Shown here: in pieces, positions 9,001 to 15,000 of the stretch
How the letters are laid out: every line of letters starts with the position of its first letter
How positions within the stretch are numbered: the stretch's first letter is position 1
From: a virus
Lineage: Duplodnaviria > Heunggongvirae > Uroviricota > Caudoviricetes
Reading direction: 5' to 3' (one strand)
Length of the DNA stretch: 20,805 bases
Virus record (IMG/VR): IMGVR_UViG_2778261509_000017
Position numbers: made by a program

Positions 9001-12000
9001 CTGGCGGCACCCAAACGCCCGTCGGGGCCAACGCCAATTGAGTTACTGAAACAGGAATATGAACGCCGGAAAGCGGCTGGTTTTGTTTGAGTTGAGAAGT
9101 AATTTTTACCGGGAGGAAATTTTAATGGAGACAGTTTTTGACGCACTGAAAGCGATGGGAAAAGCCACGTCGGTAGAGCTGGCTGCGCGACTTGATATCA
9201 GTCGTGAAGAAGTACTGAACGAGCTGTGGGAACTGAAAAAGGCTGGCTTCGTTGATAAAAGCGTATACACCTGGCGTGTGGCTGATAACAACGTTCAGCA
9301 GGAACAGCCAGCGCCAGAAGAACAGCCGGAAGAAACCACCACGGCGACAGTAGCGAAAATCTCAGAGTGCGATTTAACCGCGACGATTGAACAACGCGGA
9401 CCACAAACGGCGGATGAACTGGCTACGCTGTTCGGTACAACATCCCGCAAAGTGGCTTCAACGCTGGCAATGGCAATCAGCAAAGGTCGTCTGATTCGTG
9501 TTAATCAGAACGGTAAATTTCGTTACTGCATGCCGGGCGGTAATTTACCAGCAGAGCCGAAAGCGGCATCGGTAGCGGAAACTGATGGTAAAGCCTTTCC
9601 TCAGCCTGCATGTGTTGCGTTACCAGTACAGGAAGCTGCAACACAGGAAGATATTAAAACAGAAACTGTGGCGGACATTGTGCAGCCGCTTGAGAAGCGA
9701 GTGGATAATCTGGTTCTGCCATCGCTGCGACAGGCAAACCGCGAACTGCGTCGGGCGAAAAGTGATATCCGGAAATGGGAGCGAGTCTGTGCCGCGCTGC
9801 GGGAGCTGAATAAATATCGCGATATTGTCGCCCAGCTTTGCCAGGAGGCAACCAGTGAGCAAGATTGACTACCAGGAATTGGCTGCTGCTAACGCTTTCT
9901 TGGCGGATGTGCGGGCTGGGGCGTTTAACGACCTTTGCGCGGCGTTTGTCAGGCACGCAAAAATTGCAGGACTGGACGATGGCGATCTCGTTACGGTGAA
10001 AGAAGTGACTGATGCGCTGCTGCACTGTGCAGAACAGCTTCGGGAGGGATTCAAGCAATGAGTGAATCAAAATGTCAGATTAATGGCAATCAGATAGAGC
10101 CGTGCGCGGCGTTATCAAAATCTCTCGAATATGGAAATCCAACGTTCAAGAGTAAAGGGATATTTATCCCGGAGCGTGTGAACATAAACACTGGCGAGTC
10201 AGGCTTAGATATTGCTCAAATTCACTCTGGGCAATATATCGGTCGTGGCGTTGCAATGTGCTTTTGCCCGTTCTGTGGTGAAAGTCTGAAAACGTGGGAG
10301 AACAGAAATGAATGAAATTAGAGAAATACCAGTAATACGTGATGAATATGGCTGCTGGACGCATCCTGAGTATGAAAAATTCTGTGATGGTAGAGAACAT
10401 ATTTCAACGGAAGAGTTTAACGCATGGATGGAGGAAAATAATCTTCAATGGACCATCAGAACTATGGATGAAGATAATTTTAATCTGGACGCAGATGGTC
10501 CCGATATTGCCTCCTGGAAACCGGAGCGCCCGGAAGGTGATGGCTGGTTCATTGGTTCCATTCATGACACTGAAGATGGTCCTGTTTGTGTATGGCTGAG
10601 AAATAAGGCTGAAGCATAAAGGCGATAAACTACCTGACAACAAAATACTGAAAATTTAAATCAGAAGTGAATTTTATTAAATCCTTAACCGGAGGGATTC
10701 TGCACCCTCAGAACATCAGGAGGCCGTCTGAAAGGGCGGAACAGATAATGCTTACGTTGAAACATTTTATCGACATACCAACATGGTTAGCCGTCATTGC
10801 TTTTGTTAAAATACACATCCACTTTTCTGTGCAATGTTTAACCACTGGTCATATCAAATGGCATTCATGCGAACCATGATATAGAATCATGGCTTGAGAG
10901 AGTCGATGAAAGCGCAACTATGGTATGAGAGACATTGATGTAAGAAAGGCTGTGCATGCCAAGATTCTGAGAGATCATCATAAAGATCCTGACACCCTAA
11001 TCATTGATGAGTTTACGATGAATCTAGGGGCTAGCAGAGCTGATATAGCAGTGATCAATGGACTTATACATGGTTATGAGTTGAAGAGCAAGAGTGATAA
11101 CTTGCTCAGATTACCAGCGCAGGTGCAACATTACTCATCAGTGATGGATAAAGTAACGTTGGTTGTCTCTGATTGCCATCTTTATGATGCTTTAAGCATA
11201 GTTCCATCATGGTGGGGGATAAAGCAAGTTACGCAAGGTGCACGGCAAGGTATCCATTTAAAAACAATTCGAACTAGCAAGTTGAATCCACAAGTGGACA
11301 AACTTTCCTTAACAATGCTTCTTTGGAAAGATGAATTGCTTTCCCTATTAAGTGATGTAGGGGAGCTACAGAATTTGAAAAATAAACCTAAACGCGTCTT
11401 ATGGTCAAAACTCGCCAATAGTATGGATGTTGGCGAGCTTCGTGAAGCTGTTCGAGTTAAACTTAAAGCCCGTAAAGAGTGGCGAGTTGCTCAACAACCT
11501 TAGTTATGTGATGGTTTTGCCCAATCCTACGCCATACCTCTGGGCTACCAAATTTATAGTTACCAGAGGGATTGGCTTTGTAGGCTTGATACTCGTTTGC
11601 ATAATATTCTATGTCTCTATCTCCCGCACAGAATGTAGGCCCTGAATATTCTCGATGAGCAAGAATATCCTCACTATGTTTACCATATTGTTCATAACCA
11701 AAGCGATTAGCTACTCTTCCTCGAAATACCCAAAAGTCATTATCTCCAGAGTATCTGACGCTGGCAGATACGCTAGGGAATCGCGTCGAAAGCCTATTAA
11801 AGTCGGGGTGCTGTACTCCATAATCACTATAAATCACATTTCTGGCAAGTTCTTTTCTATTCATTAAACTCTGCCATAAAATCCACTCGATTCGAGGTTG
11901 AGAATATAGACCAACAGAAATATCACTGAGATCTGTAGGAAATGAACCCCCAGAAAGAATCACTTTTCTGTATTCATTGAGGTGCGCCAGATTGTTTATC

Positions 12001-15000
12001 AATCCCATTGCCAAAGTATATAGTTCGCCGGAATTAAGTTTATCCTCGGTTAACTCATCTCTTAAGTCAATAATTATATCAATATTTGATAAAGGAATTC
12101 CCAGATGATGAATGTAATGCGTTATTAATTGTGGGTTAACCAGATCTAACGTGGTTAATCTCAAGCATATTTCATTCTGTATTAATTCATCAATCGCTCT
12201 TTTATAGTTAGATGGGCGAGTTGGTGAACTGACAGGAATAACTCTTATCCCCATATCTCTAACTTGATTAACCGCATTTATTATAGGGTAATGATCTTCA
12301 GGCGAAATAAAATGCTCTTCAATTAATAATCCATCAATATAAACACCTTGCATATCTGAGCAAGATTTTGAGACTTTCTTTCCGAACTCTATAAGAGTCT
12401 CGTTATAACTCTTTAAGGCAATACCTGAATCAGGGTCAATTGGCACTGGTTCAATTTCGAGTAATGGCAAAATTTTTGATTTCTTTTCAATGGATAGCTG
12501 CGATAAAGCTGATAACTCAGAACGCTTCGCTTTCAGAATAGGAATATATGAAATTGTCATGTTAAAACCTTATACAGAATCAATTAACAATTAATGGTTC
12601 TTCGGACATTGAAATTTATATCGCAAAAATTGGCAAACTCTCCTCGACTACTTACTTGTGGGTATCCTGGCGTAAAAGGAATGACTTGGCAATACCCGGT
12701 GTGATCATAAGTCATTGAAAATGATCATTTTTATCAGTCTTTCTTCCATGATGAATGCTAATGCCATTTGATTTGTTGAGGTGAAAACTGTTAAAAATCA
12801 AAACGATGTAATTGAAATGAACGTTCGGTAGCATTCACGCTTTAAATGTTTCTTTTGTGCTGATTGGATGAATTTTGGTCACTTATGTTGAGAGATGTTG
12901 CAGGAAAAGAAGTTGGCATTGATCTATTGGATAGTTAGAATTGCTGCGGGTGCTTGAGGCTATCTGCCTCAGGCATGAACACCAAAAGGCAGATAGAGAA
13001 AAGCCCCAGTTAACATTCGGCGTCCGGCAAGACGCTTAACATTAATCTGAGGCCATATCTATGCGACACATAGAGATTAGCCTCTTACGGACCGAAAGGT
13101 CAAGGAGAAGCAGGCTATGAAGCAGCAAAAGGCGATGTTAATCGCCCTGATCGTCATCTGTTTAACCGTCATAGCGACGGCACTGGTAACGAGGAAAGAC
13201 CTCTGTGAGGTACGAATCCGAACCGGCCAGACGGAGGTCGCTGTCTTCACAGCTTACGAACCTGAGGAGTAAGAGACCTGGCGAGGGAGAAATCCCTCGC
13301 CACCTCTGATGTGTCAGGCATCCTCAACGCACCCAAATATTGATGCATTACATTGTTGTGTTTGAGAATTTGTTTGAACATAATTTGAACGATATTTAAG
13401 AGGAGATACGCAATGATCCGCAAACTGGTGAGATTGCTTAAAAGTGGTTCAAAGCCGTTCGACATCACTGAAATGCAATTGATGTATGATGAAATCGAAG
13501 AAAAGCAAAGAAAAATTGCTGAGGAAAAAGCAAGGATCAAAGAGGAGCATGCCAATGGATCAAGATTGTCAAGCCGTAGATTCACTATTTGATTACCTTT
13601 ATCTTGACAAAGAGCGCGTAGGTTACTTCACTGCGCAATTATTTCCATCAGGAGTATTGAATGCTGTAAAACAAATCTCGTCCAGTTCTGAGCATTCATT
13701 AAATGAACTTAAAGGTGGCGTTTCATTATTTAATGCCAGGAAAAATGCGGGGGATTCTTTTGCAAAAACGCAAGAGCGGCATTTTGACTCATCATGGTCT
13801 TTACCATTAAATTTTTTTGATAAGTTGCACGAACAAGGCTTGGTGGCAACGAGCTTAGAAAATGCAGAAATTGGAAGTCTGGTGATGGTAAAAGGGCATA
13901 TCAAATTATTTGATGTGAAAATGGCTCATGATGTTCTCCCTATATATAAAGATGCAAAACAAAAAGAACTAAAGCAGACTAAATCACCAGCTCAGAAAAA
14001 AGATATTCAAGAAGAAATTTATCATGCTAAAATGGCTGCTGACATGTTTTCTTTGCTCCCGTTCTCTACACAGATAGAGCTTCTTGACGATCAAGAAAAT
14101 ATATTCTGGATGTCGGTCAAGGCTGATGATTTAGCTTTAGATGTGGGAAATCTTGCATTAAAGTATGGTTCCAGAATACCTGGTGAATGGTATGTCATCG
14201 GTGTTATAGATGCGCTCCCGGATATAAGTGACGAGACAGTTTCAGAGTCAATATTTCCTTCTGACGAAATCAGAGGCACAATAGACTATATGCTTGAAGG
14301 TATTCGTGGAATGATTGGGAGGAGCGAAACTTCCTATGGTATGACACCGCTAGTAATTTTCAGGAAGGTGTCTTAACCGAACTTGTTTTTAGTTTTTTTT
14401 GGCAGATTTTGTCTTTTTTATTATTTATGAGTTACAATCTGTCGCGCTAGCCTGAACAACTGGCACCTGCTGCGCCAGCAGAGAAAACAGATGGCGCACA
14501 AGACCAAATTACACAATTCTGATACCGTTCGTGCCAGCAGGCACGGGCGGTGTTCTCACACATTCAAATATGACTGGTATCAGCACGACCCCTGCACTGA
14601 AGAACAGGCCGAATGGCTGATTCATAACTACCGCAGACGTGGGTATGAGTTTAGGAAAGCCCTCAGCCTCGATTATCGTCACTGGATAATCTACGTCAGA
14701 CTCCCTTATTCCGAACGCCCACCGCGTCCGTCCCGCACATTCCAGCAACGCATCTGGAGGTAACGTGCGGGTATTACTTCGACCTGTTCTGGTGCCGGAA
14801 CTTGGGGTGGTTATCGTTAAGCCAGGTCGTGAATCCATGCAGGTATTCCATAACGGCAGAGTGCTGGTTGAACCGGAGCCAAAAAGCATGCGCGGTCTGC
14901 CGTCCGGAGTTGTTCCCGCCGTTCGCCAGCCGCTGGCGGAAGATAAATCATTACTGCCATTTTTCAGCGATGAGCGGGTGATTCGTGCTGCCGGCGGCGC

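Follow-up and report, generated by a model that had tools for sequence, protein, structure and literature searches.

The analysis of one stretch of viral DNA, 20,805 nucleotides (nt) long and referred to below as the window (IMG/VR record IMGVR_UViG_2778261509_000017, Caudoviricetes), identified a pair of convergent genes with shared 3' ends. The list of open reading frames (ORFs) placed them at 10925-11503 (plus strand, 192 amino acids (aa), ATG start) and 11463-12560 (minus strand, 365 aa, ATG start), and the N-termini of both proteins agree with the family consensus. The same coordinates had been given in a first-pass annotation of this DNA, which described a convergent pair overlapping by 41 base pairs (bp), and the shared stretch is indeed located at 11463-11503. 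The pair is also AT-rich, as had been stated: its GC content is 0.34-0.41 versus approximately 0.5 for the flanking prophage DNA. The features on which the argument is based are as follows:

10925..11503, plus strand: gene of the sce7726 / Phage_P4_cII family, encoding an N-terminal PD-(D/E)xK core and a C-terminal helical part
11463..12560, minus strand: gene of the Beta_protein family, encoding a TIM barrel with many invariant charged residues
11463..11503, no strand assigned: 41-bp stretch read on both strands, comprising codons 180-192 of sce7726 and 353-365 of beta, each set with its stop codon

The 192-aa protein matched the NCBIfam model sce7726_fam (NF033832) with 191.1 bits (cutoff 70) over model positions 1-183 of 184. 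A search with the sce7725 and sce7726 models had been suggested at first pass, and it was the partner family, sce7726, that fitted this protein. The same model gave 151 bits with cII of P4, and the PADLOC 'cll' model, which is built on P4 cII, matched the 192-aa protein at 2.4e-28. Precomputed annotations assign the Phage_P4_cII family (PF26915) to cluster P0001, which is 99% identical, and to every listed homologue of the protein; no match was obtained in the Pfam copy that we searched, a copy without PF26915. The sce7726 family comprises 3,322 cluster representatives at E <= 1e-10.

The PD-(D/E)xK signature that had been read from the sequence (E29, D40, E52-x-K54) is present and is invariant in 37 diverse family members, P4 cII included. 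Also invariant in the sce7726 family is Q66-x3-Y70; a QxxxY motif after ExK is a feature of RecB/Cas4-type enzymes. The core of the protein has the alpha-beta-beta-beta-alpha-beta fold of restriction endonucleases, with D40 on strand E37-44 (strand 2) and E52-x-K54 on strand E48-54 (strand 3). Its closest structural neighbour is SPO1766 (3dnx), which we take to be a member of the MmcB-like DNA-repair family. The core fold and the placement of the D/ExK residues on the strands agree with those of SPO1766, the Can2 nuclease domain, NucS/EndoMS and type II restriction enzymes. In contrast to these nucleases, the 192-aa protein has an additional C-terminal part of four helices, which ends in its own invariant residues, K181, R183 and W186. 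No relation to any solved structure was found at the sequence level.

Over model positions 1-341 of 342, the 365-aa protein matched Pfam Beta_protein (PF14350) with 178.2 bits (E 4.1e-52), where the gathering cutoff is 27 bits; the score of P4 beta on this model is 191 bits. At first pass the protein had been assigned to a 'beta-protein/sce7725' family. The Beta_protein half of that assignment stands, and membership of sce7725_fam (NF033831) had to be rejected, the score being 12.3 bits (E 0.1) against a cutoff of 60 and covering the first 35 model positions only. The N-terminal 35 or so residues of beta do resemble the start of the sce7725 model, whereas the full protein remains below cutoff. 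The partner of sce7726 is here a Pfam Beta_protein. The fold of beta is a TIM barrel, and its invariant charged set consists of K12, E15, D76, R115, R134, D165, R223, R240, D246, R269, R344 and H351. A specific enzyme class could not be assigned, as the structural search returned generic TIM-barrel similarity only.

Both genes have counterparts in the P4 locus, where the gene order is gop (+), beta (+), cII (-) and where the same Beta_protein and sce7726/Phage_P4_cII pair lies tail to tail as cargo of a mobile-element hotspot. The homology is full-length, yet identity is only 23% for beta (along the full length) and 28% for cII (across residues 22-183 of the 192-aa protein). There are further differences. 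P4 beta and cII are separated by 27 bp and by an annotated terminator, whereas the window genes overlap by 41 bp; P4 cII is 264 aa long, whereas the 192-aa protein is without the P4 C-terminal extension; and gop, which lies upstream of beta in P4, is absent from the window according to both PADLOC and phmmer. The P4 system, gop-beta-cII (PADLOC 'gop_beta_cll'), confers protection from both lambda and P1 (Rousset et al. 2022, PMC9122126). Toxicity of gop when beta is missing is reported in the same work (Rousset et al. citing Ghisotti et al., PMC9122126). Toxicity of gop-beta-cII is triggered by phage orf184 (Silas et al., bioRxiv 10.1101/2023.04.06.535777); a gene-level map of suppressor insertions was not found in the text of that work.

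The second relative is PD-lambda-2 (Vassallo et al. 2022, PMC9519451), a system of three components: A resembles HigB, B is an Xre-peptidase that is toxic by itself, and C was described as 'P4 beta-like'. C is required for defence and dispensable for toxin neutralisation (PMC9519451). Like this component, the 365-aa protein is beta-like, and it matched the PADLOC models for PD-Lambda-2_C over its full length (PDLC03983 at 1.3e-41, PDLC03984 at 7.5e-38); the PADLOC 'beta' model covers only its first 40 or so residues. Unlike PD-lambda-2, the window contains neither the HigB-like A nor the HTH-M78 peptidase B. PD-lambda-2 was published as three genes with no mention of an sce7726 partner (PMC9519451). 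A convergent, overlapping sce7726 gene follows C in the PD-lambda-2-type loci of our collection (L036 2889-4395 and L063 7633-9137; also L047, L058, L061 and L076). Relatives of PD-lambda-2 probably carry a fourth gene, sce7726.

To describe the distribution of the pair, an sce7726 alignment was used as seed and one genome was taken per species, giving 80 loci from Gamma-, Alpha-, Beta- and Deltaproteobacteria, Firmicutes, Melainabacteria, Patescibacteria, Acidobacteria, Chloroflexi, Myxococcota and others. A beta-family gene was located directly downstream on the opposite strand in 73 of the 80, and 70 of these 73 pairs overlap, by 4-134 bp. Two of the seven loci without beta stop at contig edges. 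The reciprocal scan, with beta as seed on viral contigs, yielded 51 loci with enough room, and a convergent overlapping sce7726 gene was present in 50 of them; about half of these loci are near-identical E. coli cassettes and hence not independent. The co-occurrence and orientation analysis envisaged at first pass therefore returned a convergent pair from both directions (73/80 and 50/51). Gordonia phages Powerball and DumpsterDude also carry it. In Powerball (L090 2438-4250) genes 33 (hypothetical) and 32 ('exonuclease', 146 bits on the sce7726 model) overlap by 89 bp and adjoin an integrase gene and HicAB. Three loci from Melainabacteria/Obscuribacterales are of another kind, sce7726 being accompanied by an unrelated 713-aa protein (DUF4388 + DUF4384). 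This partner is convergent with a 13-bp overlap in L077 (3329-6195) and L078 (5498-8367), and in L081 (1671-6029) a 416-aa ORF intervenes.

Toxin genes accompany a minority of these pairs. A peptidase of the PD-lambda-2B-like HTH-M78 type lies directly upstream of beta in 16 of the 73 paired loci, and 6 of these 16 also have a HigB-like gene; detection was with hidden Markov models built from L036, L047, L063 and L079, on which the window was negative. HigB/peptidase pairs without beta exist too, including plasmid matches. Neither gop nor A or B was found in the beta-seeded viral loci, and phmmer with P4 gop gave zero matches in the window or in 133 related loci. One paired locus has a DUF6932 gene in place of the toxin module. 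A CI/LexA-like protein (HTH + Peptidase_S24) is encoded directly upstream of beta on the same strand in L018 (7681-8370) and L029 (1905-2570); it may regulate the pair, or may simply be a prophage repressor that lies next to it. Overall, the picture is of a conserved beta/sce7726 core to which various toxin modules are attached in different lineages.

The two genes are interlocked in a fixed register. In the overlap, position 1 of the plus-strand codons lies opposite position 1 of the minus-strand codons, position 2 opposite position 3, and position 3 opposite position 2. In the window, the nuclease codons for K181, R183 and W186, all three invariant, share bases with the beta codons for L365, G364-Y363 and T361-A360, respectively. 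The length of the overlap equals 2 modulo 3 in 69 of 72 overlapping pairs of the genome set and in all 50 of the viral set (119/122 in total). For 72 distinct pairs both the Trp and the His motifs could be located, and in 61 of these the W186 and H351 codons, measured between their first bases, are exactly 30 nt apart, at nominal overlaps of 20 bp and of 140 bp alike. Overlap length varies because stop codons fall at different places, and the register itself is ancestral. A comparison of eight loci with a 41-bp overlap gave a mean pairwise nucleotide identity of 0.75 within the overlap versus 0.56 and 0.50 in the flanks, and the usual drop at third codon positions vanishes inside it (0.78 versus 0.39). 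The overlap is far beyond chance, and its conservation shows that it is constrained in both reading frames. Among the classes of gene overlap in bacteria, the convergent one is, to our knowledge, the rarest and the shortest. In type I toxin-antitoxin loci such as hok/sok and in convergent restriction-modification pairs opposed units also share DNA, and RNA pairing or polymerase collision is possible. The present locus differs from these antisense-coupled loci in that both strands encode conserved proteins whose 3' coding ends are shared; there is no small RNA in the beta/sce7726 overlap, unlike in type I systems, and regulation by the overlap is something we infer.

The pair lies in a self-contained cassette of 2.2 kb, at approximately 10740-12935, which is cargo of a lambdoid prophage encoding Stx2e. 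The window is 100% identical to such a prophage of E. coli RM10740, integrated beside ompW, and the RefSeq annotation of that strain contains the same two genes under the names 'sce7726 family protein' and 'beta family protein'. On one side the pair is flanked by replication genes and three small hypothetical genes, and on the other by hokD/sok. The following features delimit the cassette:

10676..10739, no strand assigned: left junction of the cargo slot, 60-65 bp common to other E. coli lambdoid prophages, after which the cargo differs
10740..10924, plus strand: DNA 5' of the sce7726/cII-like gene, containing a single promoter-like site
12561..12935, minus strand: DNA 5' of beta, extending as far as the right slot junction, the hok/sok homology beginning at 12936

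Comparison by blastn with two other prophages (L083 and L084) located 10676/10681-10739 at 94-95% identity, and homology resumed only at 12936. Elsewhere the slot between the 10676-10739 element and hok/sok holds other cargo, namely DUF7167, an HNH endonuclease or hypothetical genes. The flanks thus agree with the earlier claim of an accessory hotspot: the cassette occupies a variable cargo slot among E. coli lambdoid prophages. It was found in 76-93 of 5,426 complete E. coli genomes and is 99-100% conserved across dozens of them. The same pair (99.5% identity) is present in phage Rac-SA53, where the annotators' notes read 'beta' and 'CII phage-like protein'. In other settings the pair occupies late-region slots, the P4 hotspot and non-phage islands.

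A third gene in the cassette was considered and rejected. The nine neighbouring ORFs were scanned with PADLOC models and gave no gop, PD-Lambda-2_A or PD-Lambda-2_B, phmmer with P4 gop was negative, and the small ORFs at 12584-12715, 12712-12834 and 10667-10879 are conserved only in near-identical E. coli cassettes.

Based on these observations we propose, with a probability of roughly 0.55, that the pair is a two-gene prophage defence module in which beta is the sensor or regulator and the nuclease is the effector. As a prophage-encoded anti-phage module it would act by superinfection exclusion or abortive infection. The beta TIM barrel would serve as sensor or regulator, a role suggested by analogy because PD-lambda-2C is needed for defence and P4 beta neutralises gop; the PD-(D/E)xK nuclease would be the effector, cutting nucleic acid upon a phage cue. 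The toxins (gop, or HigB and the Xre-peptidase) would have been added to the beta/nuclease core in other lineages. The space between the convergent genes is too short for any terminator, and mutual antisense transcription would follow from this geometry if both genes are expressed. Each transcript would run antisense into the partner gene, and since the genes share their ends, such transcripts may couple expression of the two by transcriptional interference or by an RNA duplex. Interlocked ends would also make the genes hard to separate by recombination, so that their inheritance would be coupled. A bolder version of this proposal is more speculative, and we hold it only tentatively: the pair would be an autonomous, ancient immune module of interlocked genes that allow neither separation nor independent expression, with convergent transcription as a switch between silent and active states, with P4 and PD-lambda-2 as toxin-added derivatives, and with the fourth gene of PD-lambda-2 overlooked.

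The genes and families themselves are already known and annotated, and their homologues belong to named systems. The first-pass annotation had left room for the pair being a named system already, and this proved partly so: names exist in P4 gop-beta-cII, in RefSeq and in Rac-SA53, whereas the gop-less two-gene form is unnamed. In the literature searched, the toxin-less two-gene form as the common form is undescribed, as are the convergent interlock in fixed register across phyla and the probable presence of sce7726 as a fourth gene in relatives of PD-lambda-2. Each of the two families is part of two anti-phage systems that have been validated by experiment. Should the two-gene core prove to be the conserved unit, the focus would move away from accessory toxins (gop, HigB/Xre-peptidase) and towards beta and the nuclease, for the study of which the 2.2-kb cassette is a minimal unit. 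Shared 3' ends in a fixed register from Proteobacteria to phages of Actinobacteria are unusual for convergent protein-coding genes, and the pair is a tractable natural case for asking whether antisense coupling controls an immune module. It is also of relevance to the exclusion of competing phages by Shiga toxin prophages.

Several points weigh against the proposed defence role or parts of it. Both validated relatives hold a separate toxin, which is missing from the window. Structure and literature searches found neither a solved structure nor a described biochemical activity for the sce7726 or the beta family, and, because the fold of beta is a generic TIM barrel without a specific relative, its role as a sensor is a guess. 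Replacement of the partner in the Melainabacteria indicates that beta is not an obligate partner of sce7726. Consensus scans for promoters and terminators gave counts not above those of shuffled sequences. A further point concerns the ECOR42 clone of Vassallo et al. (QOYB01000002, 228989-232396), which reaches approximately 396 bp beyond the 3' end of gene C. If ECOR42 has a convergent sce7726 gene, this clone defended with a 5'-truncated copy without the catalytic residues, and that would argue that the nuclease is dispensable in PD-lambda-2. A query with a PD-lambda-2B-like protein gave 6,280 matches, and no E. coli member was present among the 120 matches listed.

Other explanations of the pair have to be weighed against a role in defence. 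It could serve in addiction or stabilisation, maintaining the prophage or the cassette in the population, with the nuclease as toxin, beta as neutraliser and phage exclusion absent or a by-product. We consider this unlikely, although P4 beta is a toxin neutraliser, a hok/sok type I locus is the immediate neighbour of the cassette, relatives are linked to HigB, Xre-peptidase and HicAB modules, and interlocked ends enforce co-inheritance. The toxin neutralised by P4 beta is gop and not cII, and PD-lambda-2C is unnecessary for toxin neutralisation; many defence systems are in any case toxin-antitoxin-like, so this explanation overlaps with the defence reading rather than excluding it. The requirement for the beta-like component of PD-lambda-2 in defence, not in self-protection, also speaks against a restriction-modification-like arrangement, in which beta would be a base-exchange or DNA-modifying TIM barrel (TGT- or DpdA-like), the nuclease would cut according to modification state, and the convergent layout would time both activities as in some restriction-modification systems. 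In the comparison with beta, TGT and DpdA did not outscore dozens of unrelated TIM barrels, no relation of beta to TGT/DpdA was found at the sequence level, and no queuosine or deazaguanine synthesis genes are nearby; we regard this arrangement as improbable.

We find it similarly improbable that the pair serves phage DNA metabolism (repair, recombination, replication intermediates) and not conflict. The rank of SPO1766 as closest structural neighbour of the nuclease would favour this, given the presumed membership of that protein in an MmcB-like family; one database source calls a homologue 'DNA repair protein MmcB-like', and the cassette lies between replication genes and a nin-type region with RusA. 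The slot is variable, however, and most related prophages are without the pair, and its frequency in complete E. coli genomes is low; other locations of the pair include late-region slots, the P4 hotspot and non-phage islands, it is joined to toxin modules in relatives, and its low GC content points to acquired cargo. Loss of the toxin of both validated systems could also have left behind an inert remnant of gop-beta-cII or PD-lambda-2. This is very hard to reconcile with the toxin-less form being the majority across phyla and viral contigs, with two intact ORFs that keep every family-invariant residue, with purifying selection and an overlap constrained in both frames, and with a cassette 99-100% conserved among dozens of E. 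coli genomes.

The start of beta has AAGG 8-11 nt ahead of its ATG; no clear ribosome-binding site was seen for the 192-aa gene. A promoter-like site, ATGGCA-18-TAGAAT, lies at 10858-10887 before the nuclease gene, the 5' region of which is not alignable with divergent loci. One further feature was identified after the stop codon of beta:

11406..11442, minus strand: candidate terminator of the beta transcript, a 13-bp stem leading into a U tract, 21 nt past the beta stop

This hairpin lies within the sce7726 coding sequence. Its folding gave z = -4.1, and none of 200 shuffles was equally stable. Across 69 distinct loci the 90 nt past the beta stop were more structured than internal controls (mean z -1.18 versus 0.00, paired p ~1e-5); because mononucleotide shuffles and related sequences were used, this result is no more than suggestive. 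After the sce7726 stop no signal above controls was observed across the same loci.

Two sequence elements were noted ahead of the beta gene. One is the 10-mer G[TA][CA]ATTGAAA, present in three copies (12605-12614, 12711-12720 and 12808-12817) with a spacing of about 100 nt, and the other is a perfect palindrome, AAAATGATCATTTT, at 12718-12731. In such AT-rich DNA both could be due to chance, and neither was seen in the divergent loci.

Variants of the cassette were also found. In three near-identical E. coli cassettes (L098, L101 and L113) an earlier stop codon gives a nuclease of 190 aa and an overlap of 35 bp, which indicates that the extreme C-terminus of the nuclease tolerates change. A second E. 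coli variant (L085 3134-4763; also L086 and L087) encodes proteins of 206 aa and 355 aa with a 59-bp overlap; its nuclease is 53% identical to that of the window, and its slot is in a lambdoid prophage between an Rz-type lysis gene and terminase Nu1. In Rac-SA53 and in strain SA53-3 (L091 4802-5567) an IS1 with an 8-bp target duplication, AAACATTT, is present; the equivalent position in the window is approximately 10757-10764. Placed in the DNA 5' of the cII-like gene, this insertion may shut that gene off or disturb its regulation, with beta left intact.

Directly to the right of the cassette, forming the right edge of the slot, is a complete hokD/sok type I toxin-antitoxin locus (12936-13334). 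In this locus, sok was identified with Rfam RF01794 at 12948-13119 (107.5 bits) and the hok ORF is at 13117-13272; hokD/sok is common to thousands of E. coli prophages and plasmids. Just past it lies a DUF6414 gene at 13486-14376 (RefSeq start 13555) with a GC content of 0.37-0.40, encoding a protein of 273-296 aa (Pfam 31.7 bits; phrog_9699), which may be further accessory cargo of the prophage. In RefSeq, the identical locus is annotated further downstream (17319-20000) with a gene for a DNA methyltransferase (17319-18377), with three tRNA genes and with stx2eA/stx2eB (18762-19997).

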